Below are positions 2,402 through 19,081 of a stretch of 64,000 nt of DNA, in pieces; the stretch's first letter is position 1, and each line of letters begins with the position of its first letter. The translations under genes and the position numbers were made by a program. This DNA comes from Planctomycetota bacterium (GTDB lineage: Bacteria > Planctomycetota > Planctomycetia > Pirellulales > UBA7805): assembly GCA_021413705.1 (NCBI GenBank), contig JAIOPX010000077.1, positions 12,026-76,025 of the forward strand. Reading direction: 5' to 3'. The notes under the pieces are model-generated. The model made no database searches. It saw only the letters and a program-made list of their open reading frames with translations, and was not told the DNA's origin.

Positions 2402-4411
2402 TCAATATTCATTCCCCTGGGCCAGCTCCCCCAAGCCAGACCCGCCGGAAGCCGCGGCCACCTGCCGTACCTGCCGGTTGGCATTTTCCGTCTTCAACCG
2501 GTCAATCATCTCGGCCAGGGTTAAAGTCACCTGGGCTCCGTCGATCCGGTCCCGGAGCGAAACGGTGCCAGCCGCCTCATCCTTCGGGCCGACGACCACG
2601 GTATACGGTATCTTTTCCATCTGCGAATCGCGGATTTTGGCCCCCAGCTTTTCCGCCCGATAGTCGCCAAAGACTCGGAACCCTGCGGCCCGGAGCATCT
2701 CCTCGATCTTGCGGCCATAGCTTTCCGACTTCTCGCTGACGGTGCATACCCTGACCTGCTCGGGGGACAGCCACAGCGGAAACGCCCCGGCAAAATGCTC
2801 GATCAGCACACCGATGAACCGCTCAAAGCTCCCCAGCGGCGCCCGGTGGATCATTACTGGCTGGTGGACCTGGTTGTCCGCCCCGACATATTGCAGGCCG
2901 AAACGGTCGGAACTGGGTAATACATAATCAAGCTGCACAGTCCCCAACTGCCACTCGCGACCGATGCAATCGGTCACCACGAAGTCTGCCTTCGGTCCAT
3001 AAAAGGCCGCCTCGCCCGGCTCGCCAACCGCGTCGATCCCCAGCCCCTTGCATACATCCACCAATTCCGACTGCGCCCGGTCCCAGCTTTTCGGATCGCC
3101 CACGTACTTGTCGCTCTTCGGGTCGCGAAACCCGAGCCGCACACGATAGTCGTTCATCCCCAGCGACTTCAGAATCTGCTGAGTCATCTCGATGCAGTTG
3201 CGGAACTCTTCCGCCACCTGGTCCTGGGTGCAGAAAATATGTGCATCGTCCTGGGTGAACCCGCGTACGCGGGTCATGCCGTTAAGCTGCCCCGACTTCT
3301 CGTAGCGATAGACTGACCCGAACTCCGCCAGCCGCACCGGCAGTTCGCGATAGCTCCGCGGCCGCGCCTGGAAGATCTTGATATGGTGCGGGCAGTTCAT
3401 TGGTTTCAACAGGTAGCGCTCGTCATCCTCCATGGTGATCGGCGCGAACTGGCTGTCGCTGTAGTACGGAAAATGCCCGGAGGTTTCATAGAGTTCCACG
3501 CGGCCGATATGAGGAGTGTAGACCGGCTGATAGCCGCGGCGGGACAGTTCGTCCTTGAGATAACCCTCCAACACGCCTCGAATGGTCGCTCCCTTGGGCA
3601 TCCACAGGATCAAACCCTGGCCGACCATCGGGTCGATGGTGAACAGATCGAGCTGTTTTCCCAGCAGCCGGTGATCGCGCCGCTTGGCCTCTTCTAAATG
3701 AGTGAGATAGGCCTCAAGTTCTTCCTTCGACCAGAACGCGGTGGCATAGACGCGCTGCAACTGCTGGCGCGAGCTGTCTCCCTTCCAGTAGGCTCCGGCC
3801 ACGGAGAGGAGCTTGAAGGCGTTTCCCACCACGCCGGCGCTGCGCACATGCGGCCCGCGGCAGAGGTCGATGAACTCACCCTGGCGGTAGAAGGAGAGGG
3901 ACGGATGCTCGGCCAATCCGTGCTCGATATGTTCTACCTTGAGCGGCTGGGCCAGATCGCGGCAGATGCCGATGGCGCTGTCGCGCGATTCCTCTAGCCG
4001 CTCGAATGCCTCGTCGGCCTTGACGATCTTCCGCATCTCTTCTTCGATGGCCGGAAAGTCTTCCTCGGTGATCGCCCGGGGGAGTTCAAAGTCGTAGTAG
4101 AAGCCATTGTCGATGGTCGGCCCGAATGCTAGCTGCACGTTGTCGTACAGCCGCATCACGGCCCGGGCCATGAGATGGGCCGCACTGTGCCGCATGACCC
4201 CCAGGGCGGCGGCGTCTTTCTTAGTCAGCAGCTTCAGCCCCACGGCCCCTTCGCGCGGCAGCAGGGTATCGAGCCCCACGACGCGCCCGTCGATCTCGGC
4301 CGCAATGGCCGCCTTGGCCAACCCTGGCCCAATATCGGCCGCGACCTGAAAGGGAGTAGCCTGATCCTTATATTGCCGCGAACTGCCGTCGGGAAGAGTG
4401 ATAGTGAGCAT
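2402..4411 (-). CDS. thrS: threonyl-tRNA synthetase
   Basis: ORF 2402..4696. The conserved TGS-domain start [10 protein letters not shown] corresponds to the ATG at 4411. Class II aaRS core and anticodon-binding regions are recognisable. Confidence 0.93.
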
Positions 4412-4794
4412 AGGATATCCGGGGGCTGTCCCAATTTTTGTCTCAGCACAGTGATGCTGGCTTGCAGGGCAAGAGTGGGACTGTCCCCTTGGCGTACAGG
4501 GAAAGTAATGTTTCTGGGAACGGTCGAGCGCCGGCAAGTATAGGGTTCGCGGCAAAAGTGACATAGCCCAGCCAAGGCCACCCGGCGAGCCGCCGAGCCT
4601 GAAATAAGGCCAGCCCGCGAAGCCGTCTCCCGCCCGCAATCCGCCACCATTTTCAAAGGACCGCCGAGCCACTAGAATGGTTCGCAGCCGGCACATTAAC
4701 TAGCCCGAAGCGCCAGCGAGGGGAGTATCCACTCCCCTTCGGGAGCGAGTAAGAAAGCAGCCGCCACGGCTCCACCGTGGTAAAAGCGACCCAA

Positions 4795-4868
4795 GGGCGA
4801 TTAGCTCAGTTGGTTAGAGCACTACCTCGACAAGGTAGGGGTCACAAGTTCGAGTCTTGTATCGCCCA
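4795..4868 (+). tRNA. tRNA-Val (anticodon GAC at 4829..4831)
   Basis: Cloverleaf by hand: acceptor GGGCGAT/ATCGCCC, D arm GCTC-AGTTGGTTA-GAGC, anticodon stem CTACC/GGTAG with loop TCGACAA, variable GGGTC, T arm ACAAG-TTCGAGT-CTTGT, discriminator A. No encoded CCA. Confidence 0.85.
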
Positions 4869-4992
4869 CTCAACATTAAGTTACGCCGATACCAGCACTT
4901 CTGTTACTTGCCGACGTTCGGCAATGCGGCGCGTTTTTCCTGAGCCCGGACGGTAATTACCGTCCACTGGCAATTTAGGAAAGGACCGCGTC

Positions 4993-6264
4993 ATGCCACG
5001 TTTCTCCGACCGTTATCGCGCGCGCACGCCGAGCTACCGCCGTCACAAAGCCAGTGGCCAGGCGGTCGTCACCATTGAGGGTAAGGATTTCTACTTGGGG
5101 CTGTACGGCAGCAAGATCAGTCACATTGAGTTTGACCGCATCGTTGGCGAATGGCTCGCCGCCGGTCGGCGGCTTCCGAACGACCCGTTCGACGTGACGA
5201 TCGACGAAGTCATGGCTGCCTTCTGGCAACACGCCGAGAAGTATTATCAGAAGCGGGGCAAACCGACGGGGGAACTCAACAATTTCCTCTATGCGTTGCG
5301 GCCTCTTCAGAAGCTGTATGGCCACACCCTGGCATGTGACTTCGGCCCGCTTTCCTTGAAGGCCGTCCGCCACAAAATGCTCAAAACCGGATTGAGCCGC
5401 GGCGTCATCAACTCACGGGTCCGCAAAATCAAACGGATGTTCGCCTGGGCCGTGGCCGAGGAAATGATCCCCGTCGAGGTGCATCAAGCGCTACTGAAAG
5501 TTGAGGCGTTTAAGAAGGGTCGGTCACCGGCCCGAGAAACCAAACGAATAAGACCGGCTCCTTATGCCCTGGTCGAAGCCGCCCTCGCGCACATGGCCCC
5601 CGTACCGGCTGACATGGTGAGGCTGCAAAGGTTGACAGGCATGAGACCGGGCGAGGTCCGTATCATGCGCTCCGGCGACATTGACCGATCGGAAGACGTT
5701 TGGGCGTACCGGCCCGACTGGCACAAGACTGAGCATTACGACAAAGAGCGAGTGATTTTTCTCGGACCGCGCGCTCAGCAGATTTTGGCACCATATCTCC
5801 TGCGCGATGCGGAGTCGTATTGCTTTGTCCCAAGCGACTCCGAGCGCCGACGTAGCAGAGCCCTACGCTCCAGGCGAAAGACGCGAGTTCAGCCGAGCCA
5901 ACAGGGCCGACGCGGCCGCACGTCACCACCCCGTTCCTATGCCGACTGTTACGAAAAGCAGGCTTACAATCGGGCCATCCGCCGAGCCTGTGCATTAGCT
6001 GCGGGGCTGAAGCGACCACGGCGTCCGGCCGACCCGACCGAAATGTCCCGTTACAAGGCCGACTTGGCAGAGTACAACTCGCAGCTCAAGCAGGTGCTTT
6101 GGACCCCCAACCAGTTGCGGCACACAGCAGCGACCGAGCTCCGCAAGCAGTTTGGGCTGGAGGAGGCACGGGTTGTCCTGGGTCACAGCAAGCCGAATAT
6201 GACCGAGACGTACGCAGAAAAAGATATGAGCAAGGCCGCGGCGATCATGCGGCAAGTCGGCTGA
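4993..6264 (+). CDS. tyrosine recombinase / phage-type integrase
   Basis: LTGMRPGEV (catalytic Arg region), NQLRHTAATEL (HxxR) and VLGHSKPNMTETYAE (C-terminal Tyr). Confidence 0.9.
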   Translation: MPRFSDRYRARTPSYRRHKASGQAVVTIEGKDFYLGLYGSKISHIEFDRIVGEWLAAGRRLPNDPFDVTIDEVMAAFWQHAEKYYQKRGKPTGELNNFLYALRPLQKLYGHTLACDFGPLSLKAVRHKMLKTGLSRGVINSRVRKIKRMFAWAVAEEMIPVEVHQALLKVEAFKKGRSPARETKRIRPAPYALVEAALAHMAPVPADMVRLQRLTGMRPGEVRIMRSGDIDRSEDVWAYRPDWHKTEHYDKERVIFLGPRAQQILAPYLLRDAESYCFVPSDSERRRSRALRSRRKTRVQPSQQGRRGRTSPPRSYADCYEKQAYNRAIRRACALAAGLKRPRRPADPTEMSRYKADLAEYNSQLKQVLWTPNQLRHTAATELRKQFGLEEARVVLGHSKPNMTETYAEKDMSKAAAIMRQVG

Positions 6265-6359
6265 TTGGGTGTGAAGCGTTTACACGGTACAATTTCAACA
6301 TACGGGCTAGCCGGCTGATCCCCGGCGTGTCCTGTTGCCAACACCGGTAGCACCTTGCC

Positions 6360-7349
6360 GTGTGTTGGCGACGGGCGGCCCGTGACCCCAAAGGTGCAAA
6401 CGTGTCCAGCCACTCTCAGTCAACCTCGCTTGGCAGACTTCCTGAAACTCGGGAGGTTGATCCAAAACCACGCGCCGCCGCAGAATTAGGATTTTACATT
6501 GGTTGCTGGGCAACCGATGTCCTGACAGATGCACTCACGACATTGTTCAGCGATATTCATCCCAACCTCTATACCGCGCTCGGCCAAGAACTTACACGCG
6601 TTGACTCGTATATCGTAGCGGAGCAGGCCAAGGTAAACGAAAGTCTCGTGCGGTGCGATGGTCCACCGCATCCCGCTCCGTATTATTGGATGACTACATC
6701 ATTTCGAAAGATGGCCGACGAGGCTATCAGGGGAAAGGCTTATTTTGCCTGGTATACATTGGGCGCCGCGGTGGGAGATCTTTACGCTCATAGCACGACG
6801 GCTCATAGCACGACGTGGGTAGTGGCTACTAATATAAACGATCGTCCAGTCCCTGCGCGCCGCCCCCGACGCAAAATCGTGCCGTTGGGTGTCGATGACG
6901 CCATTCGGTTGCTTCGAATCATCGACGACTTGCCACATGACGAATTGCAGCAGGTAGCCGTTTTGAAGGAATTAGTTTCTCTCGCCACGGAGCCGGTTGG
7001 GCTTGACGAGCTACTGGCCGCCATCCTGCCCAGTTCACCGCGGGACACCCCTCGCCTCTTGAAGGACTTCTTTAGGGCAATCGCAGATGACCTGGGAAAA
7101 ATATCGCGCCCCGTAATAACAAAAGCCAACCCGCAGGCGGAACGAAACAAATGGATTTATGATCAATGCTGTGGACCAAAGCACTACGAAGATATTATCC
7201 GCGAGCTGAAGACCCAGTGCACCCAAAAACCGGATTGGCGTCGCATTAAGACCACGCCGGGCTTGAAGAATGCTGCTGCCCAGTACGCACGAGACAACGA
7301 CCTGCCACGTCCTCCAGAACGTGAGCCAGGTCGGCCGCAGAAAAACTAA
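6360..7349 (+). CDS. hypothetical protein (element-borne)
   Basis: 329-aa ORF with a GTG start at 6360; the true start may be further downstream. It contains a perfect 15-bp tandem duplication at 6786..6815 (HSTTAHSTT). Confidence 0.45.
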   Translation: MCWRRAARDPKGANVSSHSQSTSLGRLPETREVDPKPRAAAELGFYIGCWATDVLTDALTTLFSDIHPNLYTALGQELTRVDSYIVAEQAKVNESLVRCDGPPHPAPYYWMTTSFRKMADEAIRGKAYFAWYTLGAAVGDLYAHSTTAHSTTWVVATNINDRPVPARRPRRKIVPLGVDDAIRLLRIIDDLPHDELQQVAVLKELVSLATEPVGLDELLAAILPSSPRDTPRLLKDFFRAIADDLGKISRPVITKANPQAERNKWIYDQCCGPKHYEDIIRELKTQCTQKPDWRRIKTTPGLKNAAAQYARDNDLPRPPEREPGRPQKN

Positions 7350-7442
7350 TCTAAAAACTAATCTCCGTCGCGGCGCCAATTTCATTCGATTTCATTTCGC
7401 ATAGAGTGTTTTCAGGTCCCAATACCTGGAGGCATCTTCGAA

Positions 7443-7805
7443 ATGAGTATCGACGTCGAACGTGAGCGTTTGCAGACGTTTAACGAGGCCGCGGAGGAGG
7501 TACTGCCCCACGGCTCGCGGCCCTCTTATGCCACCTGGTGGCGGTGGTGGCGACATGGAGTCCACGGCGTTCGTCTGGAGACGGTGCGTGTGGGGGGCCG
7601 TCGGCTAACATCCGCTGCGGCCGTCCGGCGATTTCTCGCCGACGTCACCGCTGCCGTACAGGGCGAAGCACCGCCCGTTCGCACACACCAGCGGCGCCAA
7701 CGAGATCGCCGACAAGCAAAGCAGGTGCTTGCCGACGCCAAGTTGATCGACGCGACCACGGACAACCCAGCGCCTGCCAATCGTGCTACCGACCGTATCG
7801 ACTGA
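7443..7805 (+). CDS. DUF1580-like DNA-binding protein (excisionase/AlpA-like candidate)
   Basis: TFNEAAEEV...SYATWWRWWRHGVHGVRLETVRVGGRRLTSAAAVRRFL resembles the planctomycete DUF1580 / winged-HTH excisionase pattern as I recall it. Confidence 0.55.
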   Translation: MSIDVERERLQTFNEAAEEVLPHGSRPSYATWWRWWRHGVHGVRLETVRVGGRRLTSAAAVRRFLADVTAAVQGEAPPVRTHQRRQRDRRQAKQVLADAKLIDATTDNPAPANRATDRID

Positions 7806-7885
7806 TCATTAACGGCGGCAGCGGCAATCAGGGCCTGGCCGAGCCGTCCGATTAACCCGCAGGCCCCAGAATAAGGAGTGATGTA

Positions 7886-8539
7886 ATGGATGTATCTGGT
7901 TTCCTCGGCGGCAGTGTCCTGACCCAACTGGATCTTCTCCAGCCGTGCCAAGTGTGGACCATTGGCCAAGTCAAGCAACAGCTGGTGGGGACGGACCCTA
8001 AGATCGCCGTGACGTTTGTTGAGTTCTCCAGTAAGCCACTTGCGCTCAACAAGATCAACCTGCGACGCCTGGCCCAGTTGTATGGCACCCATGCCGACAA
8101 CTGGGTGGGTAAGCCCCTGGTGGTTTATCGCAGCATGACTAGCTACCAAGGCCAAAGCATGCCCTGCGTACGCGTCTGCGGACCACAGCAGGTGCCGCCG
8201 GATCTGATTTGCGATCAGCGAGGTAACCCGGTTGTGTATCAGAACGCCGCTCCGCAGGTTGGGCAGGTGTCGGCCGCGGCCGCCGCTTCCGTTGCCGCTC
8301 CGCAGTTTGCTCAGCCCGTTACCGCGCCGCGGGTCAACCCTGTGGTGTATCAGCCGGTGCCGCCACAGCAGCCGCAAGTGGCTTGGTCACCGGCACCCGC
8401 GGCACCACCGCAGGAAGCAATCCCCCAGGCCGGCCAGCAGCCCGTTGCTGCACCTCACCAGCCGGCGGTACCTGCCCAGCCGCAGGCCACGGCCACGCCC
8501 TGGGAAAACAAAAACGGCAACAGCCCGCCCAGCGCGTAG
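7886..8539 (+). CDS. hypothetical protein with a P/Q/A-rich C-terminal tail
   Basis: 217-aa ORF with a globular N-terminal half and then a low-complexity PQ-rich tail. It is followed by a terminator hairpin. Confidence 0.45.
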   Translation: MDVSGFLGGSVLTQLDLLQPCQVWTIGQVKQQLVGTDPKIAVTFVEFSSKPLALNKINLRRLAQLYGTHADNWVGKPLVVYRSMTSYQGQSMPCVRVCGPQQVPPDLICDQRGNPVVYQNAAPQVGQVSAAAAASVAAPQFAQPVTAPRVNPVVYQPVPPQQPQVAWSPAPAAPPQEAIPQAGQQPVAAPHQPAVPAQPQATATPWENKNGNSPPSA

Positions 8540-8561
8540 CTGGTGAGCTGTTGCCAACCTA

Positions 8562-8611
8562 GCGGCCCGCCTCTAGCACATTGCAGGGCGGGGGGCGGGC
8601 CGCGCATTTTT
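8562..8611 (+). terminator. rho-independent terminator candidate
   Basis: GCGGCCCGCC (8562..8571) pairs perfectly with GGCGGGCCGC (8594..8603) and is followed by GCATTTTT. Confidence 0.5.
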
Positions 8612-8628
8612 AACCACCATCATTGTAC

Positions 8629-10698
8629 ATGAAACCCGACAAAAATGGAATCACACACACCCTGGCCGTGCTCTTCCAGCCTGGCGATACGATCGAATTG
8701 CGTTGCGTTGGCCATCGCCCGATAAATGGATACTACCGTGATCCGACAAAGCTGACGGAGCATGCCTGCCAGCTAAACGGCGAGGATTTCCACCCGCCGC
8801 AGAACGTCTACGTCTGTTTGAATCCCGTGCGGCCGGATCTGTACGCCCGGCGGGATGATCAATTTGGCCACGCGGCCAAAGGTGAGGGAGTTAAGGACCA
8901 GGACATCCTCCTCCGCCGTTGGCTGCTGATCGATATTGATCCCATCCGCCCGCAAGGCGTATCAGCAACGAACAATCAAAAGCAGGCCGCGATCGACCTG
9001 GCAGGGCGAGTCTACCCCTGGCTGCAGGAGCAGTTAGGCAGCAACTGCATCGTGTGCGCCGATTCCGGTAACGGCGTACACATGTTAATCCGTCTGGACG
9101 ACGTTCCGGCAGACGGACAAACGCGCTGGGTTTGCGAGAACTTCCTGAAGTTGCTCGATCAGCAATTCAGCACTAGCCAGGCCTATGTCGACAAGACGAC
9201 CTTCAACGCAGCCCGAATCTGCACCCTGTACGGCACGGTCAAGCGCAAGGGTAGCGATATCCCCGAGCAGCCGCACCGGCTGAGCAAGCTGGAACACGTA
9301 CCCGGTCAATTGCAGCCCGTGGACTGGCAGCGGCTGGCTGCATTGGTGCATCCGTATCCTGGCGATCAGGCAACGCAGCAGACCGCAACGCAACCGATTG
9401 CAGGCAGCCAGAGCTGGAACATCGAGCAGTTGCTGCAACAGCACGGGTGGGAATACCGGCGCGACGTGAACTACCACACCGAAAATGGCGAGGTGGCGAC
9501 GAGATGGGAACTGCCCGTCTGCCCCTGGAACCCCGAGCACAACGACAACGCAGCCTGGATCATCCAGTGGCCGAATGGCGCAGTTGCTGCCGGTTGTCAT
9601 CACAATGGTTGCACCGACAAGGGCTGGCAGGCGCTCAAGCAATTGTGGCAGCTGCCTGCCAGTAACGGCATCACCACGGCCGACATTATTCTGCCCCCGC
9701 CGCCGTCGCTAGAGTTGGTAATCGTTCGTTCCCAAGACGTACAGCCTGAGCCAATTGGCTGGCTGTGGCCAGACCACGTCGTTGTCGGCGGCATCAATCT
9801 GTTCTGTGGCCGCGGTGGTATTGGGAAGACGTTCTTCCTCTGCGATCTGGTGGCACGGATTACCAACCAGACGCTGTGTGCGCCGAACGGTGATCCGCTC
9901 CGACATGGGCGCGTGCTGTACACCACAGGCGAAGACCACATTGCGAAAGTACTCGAACCCCGCATGCAGCAGCACGCTGTGGACCGCACTCGGTTGGAGT
10001 ACATCAAAGGGCTGCCTGCGGGGGTGTACGTACAGTTGCTGGACGTGGTCAACCACTGCGATTTGCTGCGGGATACCCTGCGGCAGCGGCCAGACACCGT
10101 GGCGCTGGTACTCGACCCGATCTCGTCGTTTCAGGGGGGGGCAGACAGCAACAAGGTCTCCGCCGTGCGGCAGTTCACGGCCGTGCTGACGCAGCTGGCC
10201 GAAGAGTTCAACATCGCCGTGCTGGGCATCCATCATTTTAATAAGGGAAAGCGGGAGGTCGCGGGCGATTCGATCAGCGGCAGCCACGCCTACCGCGACG
10301 CTGCCCGCGCCGCTTGGTTATTCGCTTTGGATGCCGAGGATCCGACACGGCGGCTGATGGTGTGCGACAAGCACAACTGGTCCGAGCAATGGCCGCCAGG
10401 GCTGGCCTACCGTATCGAGAGCGGCCGGATCCAATACGAGGCCGAACCGCTGGACATGACTGCGGACGAGCTGCTCTCCCAGGCGACTCCAAAGCCGGTG
10501 GAGGTTGCCTGTGCGTGGCTGGCGGCACAATTGTCTTCTGGCCCACAGCCCGCGGCCAATCTGCAGATCGCCGCGACATTGGACCACGTTTCCAAACGCA
10601 CGTTGGACCGCGCCAAGGAACGCCTGAAGGTTAAGTCCGAAAAAGAAGGGGATCACTGGGTCTGGTCACTGCCGATGGCCACGGAGCCTCCAAAATGA
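8629..10698 (+). CDS. AEP-type primase-polymerase fused to a RecA-fold (RepA/AAA_25-like) ATPase/helicase
   Basis: LLIDIDP (DxD) and SGNGVHML (sGxGxH) are AEP motifs. CPWNPEH...GCHHNGC is a zinc-binding module. Walker A is GRGGIGKT and Walker B-like is VALVLDP. The first ATG is at 8629; the track start at 8623 is TTG. Confidence 0.8.
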   Translation: MKPDKNGITHTLAVLFQPGDTIELRCVGHRPINGYYRDPTKLTEHACQLNGEDFHPPQNVYVCLNPVRPDLYARRDDQFGHAAKGEGVKDQDILLRRWLLIDIDPIRPQGVSATNNQKQAAIDLAGRVYPWLQEQLGSNCIVCADSGNGVHMLIRLDDVPADGQTRWVCENFLKLLDQQFSTSQAYVDKTTFNAARICTLYGTVKRKGSDIPEQPHRLSKLEHVPGQLQPVDWQRLAALVHPYPGDQATQQTATQPIAGSQSWNIEQLLQQHGWEYRRDVNYHTENGEVATRWELPVCPWNPEHNDNAAWIIQWPNGAVAAGCHHNGCTDKGWQALKQLWQLPASNGITTADIILPPPPSLELVIVRSQDVQPEPIGWLWPDHVVVGGINLFCGRGGIGKTFFLCDLVARITNQTLCAPNGDPLRHGRVLYTTGEDHIAKVLEPRMQQHAVDRTRLEYIKGLPAGVYVQLLDVVNHCDLLRDTLRQRPDTVALVLDPISSFQGGADSNKVSAVRQFTAVLTQLAEEFNIAVLGIHHFNKGKREVAGDSISGSHAYRDAARAAWLFALDAEDPTRRLMVCDKHNWSEQWPPGLAYRIESGRIQYEAEPLDMTADELLSQATPKPVEVACAWLAAQLSSGPQPAANLQIAATLDHVSKRTLDRAKERLKVKSEKEGDHWVWSLPMATEPPK

Positions 10699-10700
10699 TC

Positions 10701-10921
10701 AAGATCGCCAACTGCGTCCGTATCTGCGACCGGCAAGGATGCCAACCTTCAGCACTTGGCATCCTTGCCGCGGTTCCCCTCGCAGGGAACAAGATTGCCA
10801 ACTTTCCCTATGTACGTGGTTGGCAACCTTGCCAACTTCCTTCCAGTGGCAACCTTGCCAACCTCAAATATCTGGCAACCTTGCCAACTACGTGTATAGG
10901 CGCGGCTGGCAATCTTGACGG
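10701..10921. repeat. iteron array (candidate replication origin of the element)
   Basis: Three perfect TGGCAACCTTGCCAAC copies at 10821, 10847 and 10873 (26-bp phasing). Degenerate copies occur at about 10701, 10731, 10756, 10787 and 10906. The unit is itself an inverted repeat (TTGGCAA/TTGCCAA). Confidence 0.7.
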
Positions 10922-10936
10922 AGCGGAGGATCTGAA

Positions 10937-13252
10937 ATGACAACCGTGTCAGCCCTCTCAAATGCGGATGCAGCCGGCTTGCATCAGAAAGAGCCAGCTT
11001 CGTACGGTCCACCAGCTACACAATTCCCCATACAGATCGAACTCGGCGGCCAGGCGTACACTGTCCCCGTCTGGAAGGGTGAGCAACTTCCTGATCAGTT
11101 GCTGGCCTACGACACCGAGACCCGGGCCATCGAGGCGAAGGAGATCCCGCAGATCGCGCTGGCCACCGTCTACGGCGACCAAGGCAGCGCATACTTCATC
11201 CACCCTGATCAGCTGTCCCAGTTCATCATACAACACAGCCAGGTGCACTGGTGCTGTCACAATGCGACGTTCGATTTCTGGGTGACGGCCTTGCACCTCC
11301 AGGATGATCCGGCGGCCGTAGCGGCCTGGTGGGATATGGTGGGAGACAGCCGGCTGCTATGCACCATGCTGCTTGACAATCTGATCGGTCTGGCACGCAC
11401 TGACGAAGAACCGATCAGCCGCGACTTAGCAACCGTTGCCGCGGAATACTGCCCAGGGCTGCACCTGGATAAGGATGATCCTTACCGGCTGCGATACGGG
11501 GAGCTGATCGGACTGCCGGTTGCCGCCTGGCCGGCCACCGAGCCGGGGTTCTGGCACTACGCGGCCCGCGATCCGGTTGCAACGTTACTGGTGGCACAGC
11601 GGCAGTTCCAGATCACCCAGCAATTGATCGCTCCCTACGGCACCGCTTTGCTGCCCGATGCCCTGCGTCGTTTCGGACCACTGACGGCCTGCCTTCAGGT
11701 GCAGGGCAGCATCGCCCTGGATTACGCCAGCCGCAGCGGCGTGCAGCTCGATCTAGAGCAGGCCAAGCAGTTGCAGGAGAGCATCACTATTCTGGTTGAA
11801 CAGCACGGGCGGGAGATGGAGACGATGCTCCCCGGCTGCTTCAAGCGCTACGGATCGCGAAGCCAACGGGCCGGCCAGATGCAACTTACAGATGCCGGTG
11901 TACCGAAGCGCAACGCCAAGCTGATAAAAGGTGAATTGCAGCGCATTGCCGAAGCTGGCGACCCCCCATTGCAGCCGCCCCGTAACAAAGACCAATTGGT
12001 TACAGATTCGGTCAAATACTGGGAGCAACATCGCGATCTCAATCCGTTTGTTGCTACCTTCGTGGGGTACAGCGAGCAGGCGAAGTTGGCGCAGTTTTTT
12101 AAGCAGCTCGATCAGCAGCGTATCTACCCCCGATACCGCCCGCTTGTTCGCACGGGCCGCACCAGCTGTAGCAATCCGAACCTACAGCAATTGCCGCGCG
12201 ATTCTCGCTTTCGGGAGATGATCATCGCCCCGCCTGGGTACTGGCTGTTGCAGGTCGACTACTCCGTGCTGGAGCTGCGTACGCTGGCCCAGATCTGCCT
12301 GGGCCGTTACGGGAGGAGCGTATTGGCTGACTTGTTCCACCAGGGCATTGATCCCCACAAGTACACTGCCACCCTGTTGCTGGGCACGACGCTGGAGCAG
12401 TTCCAGCAGCTGCCTGAAAAAGAACAGAAGCAGCATCGACAGCGGGCCAAGGCGGTCAATTTCGGCGTGCCCGGCGGGCTCGGGGCACTCAGCCTGGTCT
12501 CGTACGCCAAACACAGCTACGGCGTGCAGCTGACACTTGATGAAGCGAAGCAGTTCCGCCAGAAGCTGGTCAGAGAAGTTTACCCGGAGTTGCAGGCTTA
12601 CCTGACGGACAATCAGCACGCCGACATCTCGCGCAACTTGCAGGCGACTGAGGCCCAAGTCAAACAGGCCCTGTACAGTCGTGACCAGATCCTCACAGTC
12701 GAGCGAATTGTATCGGGCTGCAAGTCCACACTGTCCGGCGATGAGTACCACCCGGAGCTGGTACAAAATGTCTGGGCCTTATTACAGCAGCTAAATCGGA
12801 ATCCGGACCTCGTGTCGGATCTGGCTGCGCAGCAATCTGACAGCACACTGATGCGGCGGATCCTTTACGGCGATGCACTGACCATTAGCGGCCGGCTCCG
12901 TGGCCACGTGGGGTACACGCAACGCGCAAACACGCCATTTCAGGGGCTGGCCGCCGACGGCAATAAACTGGCCCTATTTCGCCTGCTGCGGGCCGGCTTT
13001 CAGGTCTGCGGTTTCATTCACGATGAGATGCTGGTGTTGATACCAGACGGCGTGGACTACGTAGCTGCGGTGCAGCACGTGCAGCAGATCCTGGCAGACG
13101 CGATGCAGGAGTTGACGCCGGACATCCCGATCTCAACCGAGTATCTGTTGGCCGACAGGTGGTACAAGGATGTCGATGACCAACCGATCGACGGCGCCGG
13201 GCGTATTGTGCCTTACAGGCAATCCAGGGCAGGACAGGAACTCACGTGTTGA
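10937..13252 (+). CDS. family A DNA polymerase with a 3'-5' exonuclease domain
   Basis: ExoI is LAYDTETRA, ExoII is HNATFDFWV and ExoIII is YAARDPV. Pol motif A is VDYSVLELRTLAQ, motif B is RQRAKAVNFGVPGG and motif C is GFIHDEMLV. Confidence 0.9.
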   Translation: MTTVSALSNADAAGLHQKEPASYGPPATQFPIQIELGGQAYTVPVWKGEQLPDQLLAYDTETRAIEAKEIPQIALATVYGDQGSAYFIHPDQLSQFIIQHSQVHWCCHNATFDFWVTALHLQDDPAAVAAWWDMVGDSRLLCTMLLDNLIGLARTDEEPISRDLATVAAEYCPGLHLDKDDPYRLRYGELIGLPVAAWPATEPGFWHYAARDPVATLLVAQRQFQITQQLIAPYGTALLPDALRRFGPLTACLQVQGSIALDYASRSGVQLDLEQAKQLQESITILVEQHGREMETMLPGCFKRYGSRSQRAGQMQLTDAGVPKRNAKLIKGELQRIAEAGDPPLQPPRNKDQLVTDSVKYWEQHRDLNPFVATFVGYSEQAKLAQFFKQLDQQRIYPRYRPLVRTGRTSCSNPNLQQLPRDSRFREMIIAPPGYWLLQVDYSVLELRTLAQICLGRYGRSVLADLFHQGIDPHKYTATLLLGTTLEQFQQLPEKEQKQHRQRAKAVNFGVPGGLGALSLVSYAKHSYGVQLTLDEAKQFRQKLVREVYPELQAYLTDNQHADISRNLQATEAQVKQALYSRDQILTVERIVSGCKSTLSGDEYHPELVQNVWALLQQLNRNPDLVSDLAAQQSDSTLMRRILYGDALTISGRLRGHVGYTQRANTPFQGLAADGNKLALFRLLRAGFQVCGFIHDEMLVLIPDGVDYVAAVQHVQQILADAMQELTPDIPISTEYLLADRWYKDVDDQPIDGAGRIVPYRQSRAGQELTC

Positions 13253-13259
13253 AACGAGC

Positions 13260-14330
13260 ATGAAGATCACCCCAAAAATGTTTCCGAATACCGGGCGAAT
13301 TTGCTACAATAAAAAGGTTCTCACGAACATGCCTTCCATGGATTTGGAACGCTGCTCAATGCACGGACGCTTAACGATGTTCACGTTGCCCAATCCGCCT
13401 GCGAACTCAGATCTCATCGCGTCTGTCGTTGGCACCGCGTTGGCATCCACCGCTGGTAATAACCTTGTTCCTGCCTCCCGCGGCCATGACTACTTCCGCG
13501 GAGTCGCTTCCTGGCCGGACATCGACTGTTTTTTTGAGGCTGTCGGCAAAGCCCTTCTGGCTTGCGATTTTCAGACCGGTTTGGCCGCGGGTGTTACCCT
13601 CTCTCCCGAGGGCAGATTGACATTCCGCGACCCGTCGCCAGCCGCGCATTCGATCCTCAGGTCCATCGCCGAGGCCGGAACTGGATTCCATTCGACCGAT
13701 GCGGAAGGAGTCCGGTGGGCGATGCAGATCAACGCACATCTTCCCGGCCGACCAGGGGCTTGGCTGGCGCATGGGCTCTCAATTGACCGCGACTGTAGGC
13801 TATTCGGTCCTGACTACCGAGAGGCGGTGCTGCAGCGACTAAAGACCCGCCTGGATGTGCTGCTCCGCCATCGCCATTGCCTTTCCGCCAATGGGTACCG
13901 ACGGCGGGCAAAACTGACCCGGCAGCACAGGCGAATCTCACTGATCGGCCAGGCACTCGACATCATGTCCTGGATCTTGACACAGATTGAGCACGGCACA
14001 GGGGGGCTGGATCTGAAGGCGAAATCCGCAGGGCTTGCAACCGTCTTGTGGGGCGTAGATTCATCCCTGTGGCCGCTCCATTGGCAAGCCGAATTGTTTG
14101 CCTCGGTGGCAATGTTAGGCAGGCTGCAGCAAATAGAAATCGAGTTCTCTAAAACAGGCTGGGGGCCTAGACCTACCGCCTCTGAGACCGCCTTGCAATC
14201 GGTTCGTCAGCAGGGTGAAGACCTGATTCTTTCCTTCTCGCCTGGGTTTTTACAGTCCTTGCGCCTGTTCGGTGACATAATGCCCAAACAATTGATCGAG
14301 AATAATGCGCCGCCCACGAACCAGACTTGA
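13260..14330 (+). CDS. hypothetical protein
   Basis: ORF 13170..14330. The first ATG after the PolA stop is at 13260 (MKITPK). No motif recognised. Confidence 0.45.
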   Translation: MKITPKMFPNTGRICYNKKVLTNMPSMDLERCSMHGRLTMFTLPNPPANSDLIASVVGTALASTAGNNLVPASRGHDYFRGVASWPDIDCFFEAVGKALLACDFQTGLAAGVTLSPEGRLTFRDPSPAAHSILRSIAEAGTGFHSTDAEGVRWAMQINAHLPGRPGAWLAHGLSIDRDCRLFGPDYREAVLQRLKTRLDVLLRHRHCLSANGYRRRAKLTRQHRRISLIGQALDIMSWILTQIEHGTGGLDLKAKSAGLATVLWGVDSSLWPLHWQAELFASVAMLGRLQQIEIEFSKTGWGPRPTASETALQSVRQQGEDLILSFSPGFLQSLRLFGDIMPKQLIENNAPPTNQT

Positions 14331-14362
14331 TGCCAACGCAGCCGCTGACCATGGAGTGAAAG

Positions 14363-15091
14363 ATGAGCCCTCAACCACCGCCGATTCCAGATGGCCTGAC
14401 TCCCGAGGAGGAGGAGACGTTTCTGCAACTCCACGGGTATGCGTTCAACCTAAAGGAAAAGACCGGTGCTGCTTATTTGTCCGCTACGGGGGGCGCCTCG
14501 TTGGGGGATAACGTCCCCGCTCAAGCATTTGATTTTTACATGCAAGGGCTCCTGAAAGAGGCAGGACAACCCACCGATCCCATCGAGCGTATGCTGGTCG
14601 AACAGATTGCGCTGGCGCACCACAATATCGGGCGCCTCTACCTCCTGGCTGCGGGTGCGGAGACTTTGGTTCAGGCCGCCACGTACAACGCAGCAGCCGT
14701 TCGACTTGTCGCCGAATTCAGGCGAACTGCTCTGTCGCTGAAGAAATACCGTGAGCCGCCCGCGGCAAAGCATTTCACGGTTGTGAAGCAACAAAATCTT
14801 GCCCAGAACCAGCAGGTCGCCCTTATTACCGCGGAGGAGGCTGATCAGCAAAGATTTTCAAAGCAGTGTGACAGCGAACTGACTAGTAACAAGGCGATTG
14901 AACATGTGCCCCAGCAAAATATCATCTCCCAACCCCAAACGCGTGGCAGCCGGGAAACGGAACCGGTCGAAGCGCAGAGGGCTAACGCCAGAAGGCCGGC
15001 AACGCCTGCGCGACGCGGCCCTGTCCGACCGCCCGTGGCGGTTCGCGACTGGTCCGAGGACTGCGAAGGGGAAGATGAGATCGGCAGCTAA
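14363..15091 (+). CDS. hypothetical protein
   Basis: 242-aa ORF. The C-terminal 60 aa or so look like an out-of-frame translation and overlap the next ORF. Confidence 0.4.
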   Translation: MSPQPPPIPDGLTPEEEETFLQLHGYAFNLKEKTGAAYLSATGGASLGDNVPAQAFDFYMQGLLKEAGQPTDPIERMLVEQIALAHHNIGRLYLLAAGAETLVQAATYNAAAVRLVAEFRRTALSLKKYREPPAAKHFTVVKQQNLAQNQQVALITAEEADQQRFSKQCDSELTSNKAIEHVPQQNIISQPQTRGSRETEPVEAQRANARRPATPARRGPVRPPVAVRDWSEDCEGEDEIGS

Positions 15092-15239
15092 CGGAAAGCT
15101 ACGACGGAAGGGGTCAGTTTCCATCCGAGAACTGAAGGCGAGCTTGTCCGAATTCCGGAGCTTGGCCAAGAGCCTAGCCGGAATTCAGAAGACTGTAGGA
15201 GTGTTGATTAGTGCCCGCGACGGTACATCCAACCCATAA
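14898..15239 (+). CDS. small basic hypothetical protein
   Basis: NPKRVAAGKRNRSKRRGLTPEGRQRLRDAAL..PWRFATGPRTAKGK looks protein-like and basic. It overlaps the 3' end of the previous ORF in another frame. Confidence 0.4.
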   Translation: MNMCPSKISSPNPKRVAAGKRNRSKRRGLTPEGRQRLRDAALSDRPWRFATGPRTAKGKMRSAANGKLRRKGSVSIRELKASLSEFRSLAKSLAGIQKTVGVLISARDGTSNP

Positions 15240-15253
15240 GGGAGATTAGATTC

Positions 15254-15877
15254 ATGTCGGCTATTGAAGATGGAGGAAATAGTGGTGCCATAACACTAGA
15301 AGCCCTTATCGACGGGTTGCGTGTTGCGAGGCCACCGTTGAACCAAAAATGCACCTTGGCAATCCGTGCTCTGGGTAACCGCGTAATTCCATGGCTCACT
15401 ATAGTTGCGGACGACAAAGGCATAGGACTAGGACATCGCCAGCGGTTACTGGCAATTATTGACCAGATAGAAGAGGCAGATGATGAAATCAGTGACGGCG
15501 TAGCCGGGTTAATTCTGGATGCGTTGCTCGCGGCGCTGCGCGTGTCTGATCCCGAGCTAAACCATAAGGCCACACGTGCGATTATATGTTCCGTACCCGA
15601 CAGCGTGGATTTGTTCAGCCGGGAAGCCCTCGCCCACGTCAAGCAAACGAACTATTGCCTCAATTTGTTGAGGGCCGCTGAACTGACAGGTCAAAGACCA
15701 GGCGTCGAGACCTTCTTCGATCTTTGGGCCTTCCTCCAACACAAGAATCCGGATATTCGTAACCAGGTCATGCGAATCTTCTTGTCATGGTCGCCACATT
15801 GTGGGCCACCCAAGGAGGATCAAGATGACAATTGTCGGCCTGGCTGGGCGACTGCAACCGTGGTAGCGAAACAATAA
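15254..15877 (+). CDS. hypothetical protein with HEAT/ARM-like repeats
   Basis: An internally repeated pattern: LIDGLRVARPPLNQKCTLAIRALG and LLAALRVSDPELNHKATRAIICSV. Confidence 0.45.
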   Translation: MSAIEDGGNSGAITLEALIDGLRVARPPLNQKCTLAIRALGNRVIPWLTIVADDKGIGLGHRQRLLAIIDQIEEADDEISDGVAGLILDALLAALRVSDPELNHKATRAIICSVPDSVDLFSREALAHVKQTNYCLNLLRAAELTGQRPGVETFFDLWAFLQHKNPDIRNQVMRIFLSWSPHCGPPKEDQDDNCRPGWATATVVAKQ

Positions 15878-16499
15878 AGGTTCTGACTCAGTCAATTGCC
15901 GATATGTTGCTTCCTCCCTCCGCACGGAGACTTTTTCACCCGAATCAGCCCTCATAGTGGTAGTGGCCTGTGACGCTTTATCAGACAAGCGTGGCCGACC
16001 TTCGGAACCAATCCACCATCGCCGTAAATCGACAACAGGACAGGATTCGAACAACTACGGAAAACAAGGCGATTCCTGGGGATGCTTCCCAAAGCGGCGC
16101 ATTTTCCGGCTCACTATCCGCAGATTTCAGCCCGGCAATGTCACCCGGTGATCCTGCCCTGGCGACCGTGATCGACGCATGGCCGACGCTGCCCCAGGCG
16201 ATTCGGGACGGCATCCTGGCAATGGTCAAGGCGGCTGGGGGGGGTAACTTCGTTTCGACGGGGCTAGCGCCAGATTTGACGCCCTTAAATAGACTATCGT
16301 TGCCCGGGTTGCCCTTCAGGTCGTCCTATTGCGATCGGCCATGCTAGGGACTCACCACGTTGGCTAAGCACGTGCTCGCCGACGACCTTGTCAGCTTTTG
16401 TATTGCCACCGGAGAGAGTGTGATCTTCCACAACTCCAGGCATCCCCGTCGTTCTATCTGTCCCTGGCTTTACTCCACGCCTCGGGGGAGCATGCGGTC

Positions 16500-17195
16500 T
16501 GCCTCCGGTTTCATGCAGTGCCACTGTGGATCGTCTCGACCACCGCAGGCAGGTTCTTCCCATGGTCACCCATCATCGGCATCAACGAGATAGTAGATTC
16601 TCCAAAGTACCAACGACTGCGAAGCATCTGCGCGGCGTATACATCCATCGCCGGACCAGATGACCCGGCTGCAGCACTAGCACCACACAGGCGCCACAGC
16701 TGATGGGAATGCTGGAAGTCTGCTCGGTCACCACGGCAGGGCCGCTGTCAGCCGCGGTTGACCCGGCCAACATCGCCACGGGTGATTGCTTTCGCCAGAG
16801 CTGCTCAATCACCCCGTGGCACAGACAATTGATGGTGGAAAGCAGTCGATTTACTGGGGTACGTTAGTCGTACTTCCTCAACAGATTCTTTGCGATCGCT
16901 TGTGCCGGCCCAAAGTGCGGGCCAGGTCCAAACGCTGCCGAATCCGCCAGCGCCGGCGTCTTTCGCCTTCTCCTTGCACCCGCAAAACGACCATATTTCA
17001 TCCAATTGAACCCGCGATGATGACAGGCCGCGAACGTACAGATTGTGATATTGCTCGCAAAATGTACCGGCATCGGCCAGCAGCCGGAGAACCGTGACCT
17101 TCGACGCCGCAGTAATTCGGCAGGTGGCGTTGATGCTGTTGCCGTCGCAAAAGGCCGAAAGGATTGCGGTTCTTTTCTGGGCTTAGCTTTCCCAT
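16500..17195 (-). pseudogene. decayed IS1-like DDE transposase
   Basis: Pieces lie in three minus-strand frames: DEIWSFCGCKEK...VWTWPAL (DE.WSFV / W.W.A. block) and RRCFAVVGTLENL (FSK..eNh-like). Multiple frameshifts and no intact ORF. Confidence 0.4.
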
Positions 17196-17212
17196 ATTAC
17201 TTTTCTCTGATA

Positions 17213-17253
17213 TGCTTGACAGCTTAGCATTCGGTATGCTAAGCTGTCAAGCA
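17213..17253. promoter_or_regulatory. perfect 18-bp inverted repeat carrying TTGACA on each arm (operator/promoter candidate)
   Basis: TGCTTGACAGCTTAGCAT (17213..17230), loop TCGGT, ATGCTAAGCTGTCAAGCA (17236..17253). It sits 50 bp upstream of the ATG at 17303. Confidence 0.6.
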
Positions 17254-17302
17254 AAGGCAGGCAATTTCGCCAAGATTTCCCAGATATTTTGAGAGGTGAT
17301 TT

Positions 17303-18406
17303 ATGGAAGAGTTCGGATCAAGCGAAGCGGGCAAGAAGGGTGGCGATGCTCGGTCCAAGAAGTTGTCCAAAGAACAACGGAGCGAAATCGCACGACTCGG
17401 AGCTCAAGCTCGGTGGGGAAGTGCGTCGATCACCGCTAACCCGTTGTCAGTAAATAAGTTGCCTGCCCAAACAGCCCGTTCGGCGATCACCGACAATGCC
17501 CAGCGCTCGCTATTCGTGGACAAGGAAAAGGAAATCGATGGCGTCGGAATGGGCGTGCTATCGGACGGTACGGCATTTCTGACGGGTCGCGGCCTCGCGC
17601 GGCTGTGTGACATATCAAATGCCCGCATTGTTGAGATGGGGCAGAATTGGGATGTGGCATCCAAGAATGCGATGGCTGAGGGCGTGAAGAGTATTCTTCG
17701 GGAAAAGGGCTTGATGCCAGAAGTTCCGTACATCGAAGTAACTCAGCGCAGCGGCGTCTTCTATGCGTATTCCGATGTGGTGTGCTTGGCCGTCTTGGAA
17801 TACTACGCCTTCGACCAACCTACGGAGCACGCGAAAAAGAACTTCAGACTGCTTGCCGGAAAGGCGCTTCATGATTTTATCTATGCGCAAGTCGGCTACG
17901 ATCCCACTAACCACGTCCCGGAGCAGTGGCGTCAATTCCATGACCGCGTATCGCTAACCTACAACTCCGTGCCCGCCGGATACTTTTCAGTGTTCAAGGA
18001 AATTGCAGATATGATCGTTCACCTTGGACAGATCGGCCTCACCATAGACAGCAGTTTCGTCCCGGATATTTCAGTTGGCATTCACTGGAGTAAGTATTGG
18101 GGCGAACAGGAACTTGCTCAGAAATATGGTGAACGAATTAAGTTTGAGCACAACTACCCAAGCTACTTTCCGCAATCAAAATCCAATCCGCAACTTCCGT
18201 GGTGCTATCCAGAAATGTCGCTCGGCGAGTTTAAGCGATGGATTCGCCAAACGTATATCAAAGAGGGTAAATTCAAGAAGTACCTGGAAAGCCAAGTAGA
18301 CAAAAAGGCCCTTCCGCCATCGTTTGCCCAGATTGCTGTTGCGGCATACGACGGATCAAACAGCCTCAAACAACTGCCCGCCCCGACTCCCAGCCTGCCT
18401 CAATAG
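17303..18406 (+). CDS. P63C-like domain protein (prophage-associated family)
   Basis: The N-terminal KKGGDARSKKLSKEQRSEIARLGAQARW motif is followed by a ...GVGMGVLSDGTAFLTGRGLARL block, the pattern I associate with P63C-domain proteins. Visibly more A/T-rich than its flanks. Confidence 0.5.
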   Translation: MEEFGSSEAGKKGGDARSKKLSKEQRSEIARLGAQARWGSASITANPLSVNKLPAQTARSAITDNAQRSLFVDKEKEIDGVGMGVLSDGTAFLTGRGLARLCDISNARIVEMGQNWDVASKNAMAEGVKSILREKGLMPEVPYIEVTQRSGVFYAYSDVVCLAVLEYYAFDQPTEHAKKNFRLLAGKALHDFIYAQVGYDPTNHVPEQWRQFHDRVSLTYNSVPAGYFSVFKEIADMIVHLGQIGLTIDSSFVPDISVGIHWSKYWGEQELAQKYGERIKFEHNYPSYFPQSKSNPQLPWCYPEMSLGEFKRWIRQTYIKEGKFKKYLESQVDKKALPPSFAQIAVAAYDGSNSLKQLPAPTPSLPQ

Positions 18407-18521
18407 CAGCCTTGAGCAACGTCATGCCGCGATCATCGACGTTCTGAATGTGGCTGGACCATTCGGCCCAGCCTCATTCGCAGCGACGGACAGGGCAGCA
18501 ACCGCCTGCTAGAATCGGGGT

Positions 18522-18791: not shown

Positions 18792-19081
18792 CCGAAGGGC
18801 TTCTTGTCTCATCAAGTCGGGGCAACAGGACACGGTTAGAACTTTTTCGGCCAGCTAGCGTGGTGTCTGCCGGTCGTCTGGGTAGTGCGTCAGCCTTATT
18901 CAAGGCGGCCATTATTCCACGGAATTGCTGTGCTAGCGGCCAAGATTTGGGAAAGGGCACAGCTCTGGGCCGGCTCCGCAAGGCGGCGAAATCGTTGCTC
19001 GCTGTGCTCGTCGCCCGGTACCCGGCATGTCTCTCGCTGCTGAATTGGCCGCGGCGAAGGCCGGTATTCTTCTGTAAGAAG

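Follow-up and report, generated by a model that had tools for sequence, protein, structure and literature searches.

A tRNA-Val-adjacent locus of a freshwater Pirellulaceae chromosome with the gene set of a compact self-replicating mobile element

The phage satellite P4 and the P4-like elements are small (11.6 kb in the case of P4), carry a tyrosine integrase gene by a tRNA gene (tRNA-Leu for P4), have no capsid gene of their own and can exist integrated or as a plasmid, and the replication of P4 involves the alpha primase-helicase and the ori/crr iterons. Pipolins are integrative elements, often found at tRNA genes, that encode their own DNA polymerase, occur also in plasmid forms, contain no virion genes and carry defence cargo (PMC5695915, PMC11551731). 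Marine virion-encapsidated elements and phage-inducible chromosomal islands (PICI) are likewise small and possess an integrase, an AlpA/excisionase-type regulator and a primase-helicase but no major capsid gene, and a DNA polymerase is present in some of them (PMC9618062). An element that shares many of these traits has been analyzed here in a 64-kb stretch of contig JAIOPX010000077.1 (the window, which means the whole stretch of DNA under analysis), where about 11.5 kb adjoining a tRNA-Val gene in the chromosome of a freshwater Pirellulaceae bacterium contain an integrase gene, a primase-helicase gene, an iteron array and a family A DNA polymerase (PolA) gene.

The window element resembles P4 in size, in its integrase by a tRNA gene, in the lack of a capsid gene and in its potential to exist integrated or as a plasmid, and one multifunctional protein would likewise serve as primase and helicase, probably also binding the origin repeats. 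However, P4 alpha has a different primase fold and a superfamily 3 (SF3) helicase, P4 has no DNA polymerase, and its genes for manipulating the helper (sid, psu, delta and epsilon) were not found in the window element; no sequence homology between both elements was detected. Pipolins differ in host range and in their polymerase, the primer-independent family B enzyme piPolB, whereas the window element combines a family A enzyme with a separate primase-helicase of the archaeo-eukaryotic primase (AEP) type. The marine elements are defined by their presence inside virions, and many of them encode a small terminase subunit (TerS) or motor-like ATPases that are absent in the window copy (PMC9618062). 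The presence of an integrase together with an autonomous replicon, by which phage satellites are recognized (P4-like elements, PICI, PICI-like elements or PLE, and virion-encapsidated integrative mobile elements or VEIME), is also a property of the window element.

Among plasmids, pAL20118a from Cyanobacterium aponinum (12.2 kb, circular, non-mobilizable) has a similar size and encodes a tyrosine recombinase, and its large helicase gene immediately precedes the bifunctional exonuclease/polymerase (PolA) gene. It exists, however, as a free circle, has a DnaB-like helicase instead of an AEP domain joined to an AAA_25 ATPase, and its polymerase is only about 26% identical over one third of the query. 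The IncQ plasmid RSF1010 provides the best structural match to the N-terminal half of the primase-helicase (RepB') and the best sequence match to its C-terminal half (RepA), and both replicons have an iteron-type origin. In RSF1010, however, RepB' and RepA are separate proteins, the RepC initiator is needed and the host Pol III carries out DNA synthesis, whereas the window element has a fused protein and its own polymerase, and no RepC-like protein was found in it. Integrative conjugative or mobilizable elements, including those of actinomycetes (ICE, IME, AICE), differ by their relaxase/oriT, type IV secretion system (T4SS) or coupling proteins, or FtsK-like Tra proteins, and no such Pfam domain was found in the open reading frames (ORFs) of the window or in the scan of the family. 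Prophages of the Caudoviricetes differ by their major capsid, portal and large terminase genes, none of which was found in the window or in 17 related elements.

The locus probably represents a compact self-replicating mobile element integrated into a Pirellulaceae chromosome, covering at least positions 4870 to about 16350 (about 11.5 kb) and belonging to a family that is widespread in Planctomycetota. A tyrosine integrase gene 3' of tRNA-Val, a full replication set, no recognizable virion or conjugation genes and one copy per chromosome have been directly observed, and the element may be either plasmid-like or satellite-like. An earlier note, written from the letters of the window alone, had described a tRNA-Val-anchored integrative element and read it as an integrative plasmid or a satellite-like replicon, and this reading is supported, as neither of the two observations that the note had named as speaking against it was made.

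The tRNA-Val(GAC) gene (4795-4869, + strand) has been identified with ARAGORN and with Rfam (tRNA, 68.2 bits). It is the sole tRNA gene in the window and would be the integration target, with its 3' end toward the element. The tyrosine integrase gene (4993-6264, + strand), encoding a protein of 423 amino acids (aa) of cluster C5, starts 123 nucleotides (nt) past the 3' end of the tRNA-Val gene at one end of the element, the hallmark arrangement of tRNA-targeting elements. Its product matched PF00589 Phage_integrase (E=1.5e-11) and phrog_1 (E=2.4e-26), in agreement with the earlier identification, and no second integrase gene is present in the 64-kb window. Integrase homologues with 35-43% identity are located directly 3' of tRNA-Gly, tRNA-Ala, tRNA-Ala and tRNA-Val genes in the related loci L098, L126, L127 and L131. 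The left-end spacer on the attL side (4870-4992, + strand) contains two hairpins, TTGCCGACGTTCGGCAA and GGACGGTAATTACCGTCC, and a comparable layout after the tRNA, in which TCAnCnTAA is followed by a hairpin and by TGCGGC/TGCAGC, was found in the same four loci. All genes of the element after the integrase are on the + strand, up to position 16347, in the order o329, DUF1580, o217, primase-helicase, a 238-nt gap, PolA, o323, o242, o113, o207 and an ORF of 69-125 aa. The left flank includes the threonyl-tRNA synthetase gene (thrS) and infC, and the best relatives of this flank are metagenome-assembled genomes (MAGs) of Pirellulaceae, with about 60% identity. The pair formed by thrS and tRNA-Val is kept in Pirellulaceae MAGs, with zero match to the window downstream of the tRNA gene. 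The sole public run with this sequence (SRR15633504) is a freshwater metagenome, available as assembled contigs, in which a contig of 13,980 nt is identical to positions 4841-18820 of the window.

The primase-helicase gene (8629-10698, + strand) encodes a protein of 689 aa that comprises an AEP domain (aa 1 to about 345), a RepA/AAA_25 ATPase domain (aa about 363-545) and, at the C-terminus, a possible DNA-binding domain of about 100 aa. The C-terminal half of the protein matched AAA_25 in Pfam (E=1.6e-27), and the best sequence match of the ATPase half in the PDB was the RSF1010 RepA helicase, a weak one (E=0.046). The N-terminal 348 aa showed no Pfam, NCBIfam or PDB match by sequence, including searches with profiles from 4 and 15 sequences. 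An AlphaFold2 model of this domain, obtained with a 15-sequence alignment, had a predicted local distance difference test score (pLDDT) of 89.1, and the top 50 matches in a Foldseek search of the PDB all belonged to the AEP superfamily. The best of them was RepB', the primase of RSF1010 (E=9e-6), and next came the PrimPol of phage S-2L, LigD polymerase domains, CAPP and PriS. The residues D102-x-D104, S146-G-N-G-x-H151, D188, R196, G202-T203 and K207 and a Cys/His cluster, a zinc cluster in the primase domain, are invariant or near-invariant in the family of this domain, which displays the hallmarks of AEPs, that is, the fold and the DxD, sGxGxH and third acidic motifs. The N-terminal domain is therefore predicted, from a confident model, to have an AEP primase fold, and the AEP primase fused to a RecA-fold ATPase that the earlier note had proposed is borne out by the Foldseek and AAA_25 matches. 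An exhaustive search with the N-terminal domain (8629-9672) retrieved 7,992 cluster representatives at E<=1e-3 and 2,211 at E<=1e-30, which makes a family of about 8,000 clusters at 50% identity that is recognized by no Pfam or NCBIfam model. The fusion partners of the AEP domain in other members are DUF3987, DUF927, DUF5906/D5_N or VapE NTPases, with which primases of mobile elements are usually combined, and at least five helicase/NTPase types have been found in such fusions.

The gap between the primase-helicase and PolA genes contains an iteron array (10700-10917, without assigned strand) as candidate origin. A 16-nt dyad iteron, TGGCAACCTTGCCAAC, is present there in three perfect copies at 10821, 10847 and 10873, in a 26-bp phase, with at least four further (A/T)TGCCAAC half-sites and flanking inverted arms distributed across the array, and the observed number of iteron matches was reached by none of 100 dinucleotide-preserving shuffles, so that the array noticed earlier stands. 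Judged from its sequence, this array of directly repeated putative initiator-binding sites would fit iteron-controlled plasmid replicons. Repeat arrays occupy the same helicase-PolA intergenic position in L002, L090, L007, L100 and L123 with lineage-specific sequences, a pattern that is expected of origins co-evolving with their initiator.

The PolA gene (10937-13252, + strand) encodes a family A DNA polymerase of 771 aa (PF00476, E=6e-33; phrog_17, E=3e-65) that contains a 3'-5' proofreading exonuclease and is devoid of a 5' nuclease domain, its nearest solved structures being of the PolI, Taq and Prex types. All motifs that had been described from the letters as intact are invariant in a 30-sequence alignment: ExoI D59/E61, ExoII D113 and ExoIII Y208/D212 in the exonuclease, and motif A D441/E446, motif B R501/K505 and motif C H695-D696-E697 in the polymerase. 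Identity with polymerases of cultured phages did not exceed 25%, and with those of plasmids it reached 34% at most, over a part of the protein. In IMG/VR, a viral contig of 67 kb encodes a polymerase 50% identical to that of the window within a typical phage DNA-metabolism block, and about 20 phage-sized contigs carry an AAA_25 helicase gene directly upstream of the polymerase gene. In a rough neighbour-joining tree of PolA, polymerases from genome elements and from viruses interleave, and the clade of the window is sister to the 67-kb viral contig.

The hypothetical ORFs of the window showed no significant match in Pfam, PHROGs, NCBIfam or PADLOC, capsid, portal, terminase and tail families included, and no relaxase, T4SS, coupling or FtsK-like Tra domain was found among them in Pfam, which confirms the impression gained earlier by eye. 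The analysis has been extended to 98 non-core ORFs from 17 related elements, where only regulators, methylases, insertion sequence (IS) transposases, a Sak4-like ATPase and a nuclease were found. The PHROGs matches of these ORFs were excisionases, repressors, DNA-binding proteins and three weak TerS matches, and their complete Pfam list (25 families) includes no capsid, portal, terminase, tail, relaxase, T4SS or FtsK-type domain. Genes for TerS or capsid-size redirection, the kind that hijacks helper packaging and by which most satellites are defined, had no match in the window copy, and in three other family members there were only weak matches to phrog_57. The structural phage genes that could have been hidden among the hypothetical proteins of an ordinary prophage were thus found by these profile searches neither in the window nor in the 17 elements, and a conserved unit of 10-12 kb leaves too little room for capsid, portal and terminase genes.

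The PolA homologues number more than 180, nearly all of them from Planctomycetota and several from complete chromosomes. Relatives of the element are present in cultured strains or closed genomes such as Gemmataceae CJuql4 (L131), Novipirellula artificiosorum and Tautonia plasticadhaerens. A total of 79 genome loci were fetched and their ORFs clustered, and the same compact module was found in dozens of Planctomycetota genomes, with a recurrent order that consists of a small HTH_17/excisionase-like gene, an o217-like gene, the primase-helicase gene and the PolA gene. The primase-helicase of the family is either an AAA_25 protein with one of two AEP domains or a DUF3987/DUF3854 protein. The module is completed in three ways. 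In some loci the addition is a second clade of tyrosine integrases whose 3' end abuts a tRNA gene (Met, Arg, Glu, Arg), in others it is a large serine recombinase, and in a third arrangement, that of the window, the o242/o113 pair is added and the integrase gene stands at the opposite end. This coupling to two clades of tyrosine integrases or to a serine recombinase indicates a mobile module and not a host locus. The tRNA genes abutted by the integrases differ between genomes (tRNA-Gly, -Ala, -Val, -Met, -Arg and -Glu). Long att repeats were seen in relatives with other integrases: in L108, 24-nt direct repeats of the tRNA-Arg 3' end, 10.4 kb apart, bound the element, and in L093 an 18-nt repeat of tRNA-Met bounds the PolA element. 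Synteny of the region without att sites in all relatives, which the earlier note had named as an observation that would speak against an integrated element, was not encountered; the region is not syntenic in the MAGs with the thrS/tRNA-Val pair, and the related elements are located at other tRNA genes, one of them between the 24-nt direct repeats. Full-text literature searches retrieved no paper mentioning DUF1580 and none describing such elements in Planctomycetota, in line with the earlier statement that they are poorly described in this phylum.

Two further observations were made in these loci. In L093, a window-type integrase gene (3929-5086) is situated just outside the 18-nt repeat at tRNA-Met, an arrangement that suggests two elements integrated in tandem at one site. 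In L113 (Pirellulaceae MAG, CAVOND010000011.1), a related PolA element ending at tRNA-Arg has an array of 26 tRNA genes (130-3901) a few kb upstream.

Between the integrase and the primase-helicase genes there are three ORFs. The 329-aa ORF o329 (6360-7349, + strand) occupies a variable slot between the integrase gene and the excisionase candidate; it had no match in Pfam, PHROGs, NCBIfam or PADLOC, a counterpart is absent from the related loci, and it is probably cargo. The DUF1580 protein (7443-7805, + strand; PF07618, E=3e-14) is the candidate excisionase or regulator that had been recognized before. Excisionase-like HTH_17 proteins hold its position in relatives, and a profile-profile alignment of DUF1580 with HTH_17 covered the whole helix-turn-helix (HTH) core, with weak scores (E=0.0046, probability 7.6%). 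The conserved small protein o217 (7886-8539, + strand, 217 aa) belongs to cluster C7, present in 6 loci with further tblastn matches, had a match to phrog_11517 (E=2e-4) and is always encoded upstream of the primase-helicase. Its N-terminal domain of about 100 aa is joined by a P/Q-rich linker to a short C-terminal tip, a layout resembling that of single-stranded DNA-binding proteins (SSB), and o217 may be a putative single-strand-binding partner.

Downstream of PolA, the accessory protein o323 (13359-14330, + strand, 323 aa) is an ORFan with a single homologue among 5.8 billion proteins, that of L002 (59% identity). The protein o242 (14363-15091, + strand) is the most conserved accessory protein, with 54 homologue clusters, none of them annotated, and its gene sits downstream of PolA in L002, L114, L117, L126 and L131. 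Its model is a four-helix bundle with a disordered basic tail (pLDDT 75.7 overall and above 90 in the bundle), and the fold had no significant match in BFVD or PDB. The small and very basic o113 (14898-15239, + strand, cluster C11) overlaps o242 in another frame; this conserved partner of o242 is found in L114, L116, L117 and L131, and is 81% identical in L002. In the closest relative, both reading frames of the overlap (14898-15091, about 190 nt) are conserved, and the overlap may represent genuine overlapping genes or a programmed frameshift. The protein o207 (15254-15877, + strand, 207 aa), with a helical-repeat look by eye, has a homologue in L002 only (46%), and neither o323 nor o207 matched any family in Pfam, PHROGs and further profile libraries. 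The last segment common to related elements is a small ORF of 69 aa (16138-16347, + strand; 125 aa if started at 15970), which has a conserved motif WPTLPxAIRxGILAxV and is called as a gene in L001.

The right end of the element can be placed in the interval from 16233 to about 25 kb. Homology with the closest relative, L002 (PolA 83% identical), covers positions 7814-15832 of the window, and an 84-nt block of the window (16150-16233) corresponds to L002 4645-4728, at the opposite end of the L002 copy and beside a tmRNA-like fragment. Window and L002 therefore share a circular gene order that is opened at different points, which places the right end of the window element beyond 16233. The fragment in question, a tmRNA/tRNA-like sequence at the left edge of L002 (4484-4559, - strand), matched the Rfam tmRNA model with E=2e-6 in the two model ends only. 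A protein of 427 aa in L002 was considered as an integrase and rejected, as Pfam identifies it as a DUF3102 protein. Positions 16209-16245 were also found in two other contigs of the same sample. According to the ORF and GC3 (GC content at third codon positions) analysis, about 950 nt without a convincing ORF (16348-17302, no strand assigned) form the candidate zone for the right junction, and attR lies most likely within this non-coding zone of 16.35-17.3 kb. Other candidates have been discarded: the nonamer GTATCGCCC at 21818 is inside a coding ORF, a 17/20 match between 16033 and 18823 is no better than expected by chance in a region this large, and the contig ends at 4841 and 18820 are explained by tRNA sequence common to other organisms and by a multi-copy repeat at 18.8-19.0 kb, respectively.

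Beyond this zone, a BstA abortive-infection defence gene (17303-18406, + strand) was identified with PADLOC (PDLC02356, E=7.7e-114, profile positions 6-287 of 292). A perfect 18-bp palindrome, TGCTTGACAGCTTAGCAT/ATGCTAAGCTGTCAAGCA, lies ahead of it at 17213-17253 and looks like an operator overlapping a TTGACA box. The BstA gene is absent from all related loci, and it could be either distal-end cargo or an independent neighbour. A repeat that resembles a miniature inverted-repeat transposable element (MITE) occupies 18791-19007, with a word depth of about 1,780 against about 13.5 in its flanks in the sole run holding the genome; its core (18816-18846) is found in at least 15 contigs in different contexts, and one contig (depth 11) skips 18500-18814, with loss of a small membrane ORF. 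A Schlafen/AlbA_2 protein gene (20651-21568) is followed by overlapping tandem paralogues for small membrane proteins (21601-22182 and 21968-22543), and this block may be a further defence or accessory cassette. A gene for a LuxR regulator is also found between 16.35 and 25.4 kb. A 3' remnant of a group II intron lies on the - strand (23647-24704), with domains V/VI detected by the Rfam model Intron_gpII at 23996-24145 and a maturase fragment ORF at 24156-24641 (GIIM, E=2e-4), and it is multi-copy in the sample (depth 70-690). Host respiratory genes start at 25.4 kb, in a cluster (25381-43792) that comprises a quinol-type NO reductase (qNOR) with a protoglobin, Rieske/cytochrome b proteins with multihaem cytochromes, and an NXR/NAR-like molybdoenzyme of 1163 aa with a twin-arginine translocation (TAT) signal together with Fe-S, NarJ-like and ethylbenzene-dehydrogenase/cytochrome c subunits, a combination that is unusual for a Pirellulaceae bacterium.

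Several results weigh against an active mobile element, and the absence of direct evidence of mobility for the window copy is the main weakness of this explanation. The earlier note had proposed a search for circular junctions or raised coverage, and this gave neither: the depth was 13.9 for the contig with the element, 13.3 for the next contig and 14.2 for the left flank, and no circular-junction contig was found in the sole run, which consists of assembled contigs, where rare excised forms would be missed. The equal depth of element and chromosome indicates that the element was single-copy and integrated at sampling time. There were no circular contigs or terminal overlaps among the fetched relatives, and the strain is present in one public sample only, according to exact-protein look-ups. 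The proposed search for attR in 15-25 kb was also negative, with no repeat of the tRNA-Val 3' end of 13 nt or more in the window (exact k-mers, blastn-short) and with Smith-Waterman scores that did not exceed those of shuffled controls, in the window as well as in L098, L126, L127 and L131; the right-hand coordinate of 16350 is not confirmed by it. No empty tRNA-Val site was found among the thrS relatives, whose threonyl-tRNA synthetase is, at 60% identity, too distant to define the junction. In L002 there is neither a full tmRNA gene nor a recognizable integrase within 22 kb, and the lack of an integrase makes the circular-permutation argument count as modest support only. The proteins o329, o217, o323 and o207 were examined by sequence profiles only. 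An apparent joint from 16236 through 37 nt to 5251 proved spurious, as the integrase gene has no alignment of 85% identity or more with a second contig, and the contigs of 10-11 kb L004, L006 and L007 were rejected as complete episomes, since they carry host genes and show no terminal overlap.

These negative results, namely the lack of attR and of an excised form and the single-copy depth, would also be expected if the locus were the immobile remnant of a decayed prophage of which only the integration and replication modules survive, and the phage type of the replication module and the roughly 950 non-coding nt after the last conserved ORF point in the same direction. Such decay is nevertheless very improbable, given that the core genes are all intact with invariant catalytic residues and that no fragment of a structural gene was found in the 17 elements; the compact set, moreover, recurs in dozens of genomes at different tRNA genes and with different recombinases, once with 24-nt repeats 10.4 kb apart, which independent decay would not yield time after time. 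No tRNA-like or tmRNA-like fragment was found at the right end in the window, and the attR repeat is missing as well in four elements of the same integrase clade, which looks like a property of the clade and not like decay. A different delimitation, rather unlikely on present evidence, would be a larger unit of about 17-20 kb, from 4870 to about 22-25 kb, in which a replication and integration core is followed by distal defence or accessory cargo (BstA, the Schlafen/AlbA_2 protein, the membrane proteins and the LuxR regulator), as in the two-part design of pipolins (PMC11551731). It is favoured by the GC content, which stays at a low 0.53-0.56 between 14 kb, a position in the certain part of the element, and 22 kb and then rises to 0.59-0.60, by the typically prophage-borne nature of BstA, by the MITE-like repeat and the group II intron remnant as signs of a mobile-DNA hotspot, and by the start of the host respiratory genes only at 25.4 kb. 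However, the genes between 16.4 and 25 kb adjoin no related element, homology with L002 stops at 15832 save for the 16150-16233 block, and no att repeat was found at any candidate end, the 21818 nonamer being within a coding ORF.

For the compact self-replicating element, the following mechanism is proposed. The integrase would excise the element as a circle, with the DUF1580 protein as directionality factor. The primase-helicase would recognize the iterons, probably through its C-terminal domain as in P4 alpha, and would then melt the origin, unwind the DNA and lay primers to be extended by the proofreading PolA of the element, perhaps with o217 as single-strand-binding partner, these three proteins forming a minimal replisome of the T7 or IncQ kind. 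The circle would persist as a plasmid or re-integrate. As neither a particle nor a mating apparatus is encoded, spread from cell to cell needs outside help, and packaging by a helper phage is the most plausible transfer route, an idea with which the phage-genome relatives of the polymerase-helicase module fit. A more specific version of this explanation, and not an alternative to it, is that of a strict phage satellite, which would stay silent until the arrival of a helper phage and then be excised, over-replicated and packaged, possibly as concatemers, in helper capsids. With its integrase, excisionase-like protein, primase-helicase and iterons, the element is equipped like P4, PICIs and the marine virion-encapsidated elements, the last of which are also without capsid genes and in some cases with DNA polymerases (PMC9618062). 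The helicase-PolA adjacency in about 20 phage-sized IMG/VR contigs, the sister position of the window clade to the 67-kb viral contig, the weak phrog_57 (TerS) matches of three family members and the BstA defence gene next door are consistent with it too. Against it, no packaging-redirection gene (TerS, Sid/Cpm-like or capsid) was found in the window copy, the TerS matches are weak (E >= 1e-4) and maybe reflect a mere common HTH, no helper phage was identified, and known satellites rarely need a polymerase of their own. The strict-satellite version has clearly less than an even chance.

To our knowledge, the mobile DNA of Planctomycetota has hardly been described, and there are few genetic tools for these bacteria. 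A compact element of 10-12 kb with its own origin, primase-helicase, polymerase and site-specific integrase is a natural starting point for shuttle or integrative vectors. The most useful results are the family-level picture and the unrecognized AEP family. The family adds a case with a family A polymerase to the integrative elements with their own polymerase, which so far comprised pipolins, casposons and polintons, and one replication module is shown moving between phages and small elements. It is tentatively proposed, as a view that falls somewhat short of an even chance, that Planctomycetota and some other bacteria of the Planctomycetes-Verrucomicrobia-Chlamydiae (PVC) group host a phylum-wide and undescribed group of small integrative replicons with a private replisome (primase-helicase, proofreading PolA, SSB-like partner and lineage-specific iterons), which would be the family A counterpart of pipolins and would swap recombinases, exchange their module with temperate phages and spread as helper-dependent satellites with defence genes such as BstA.

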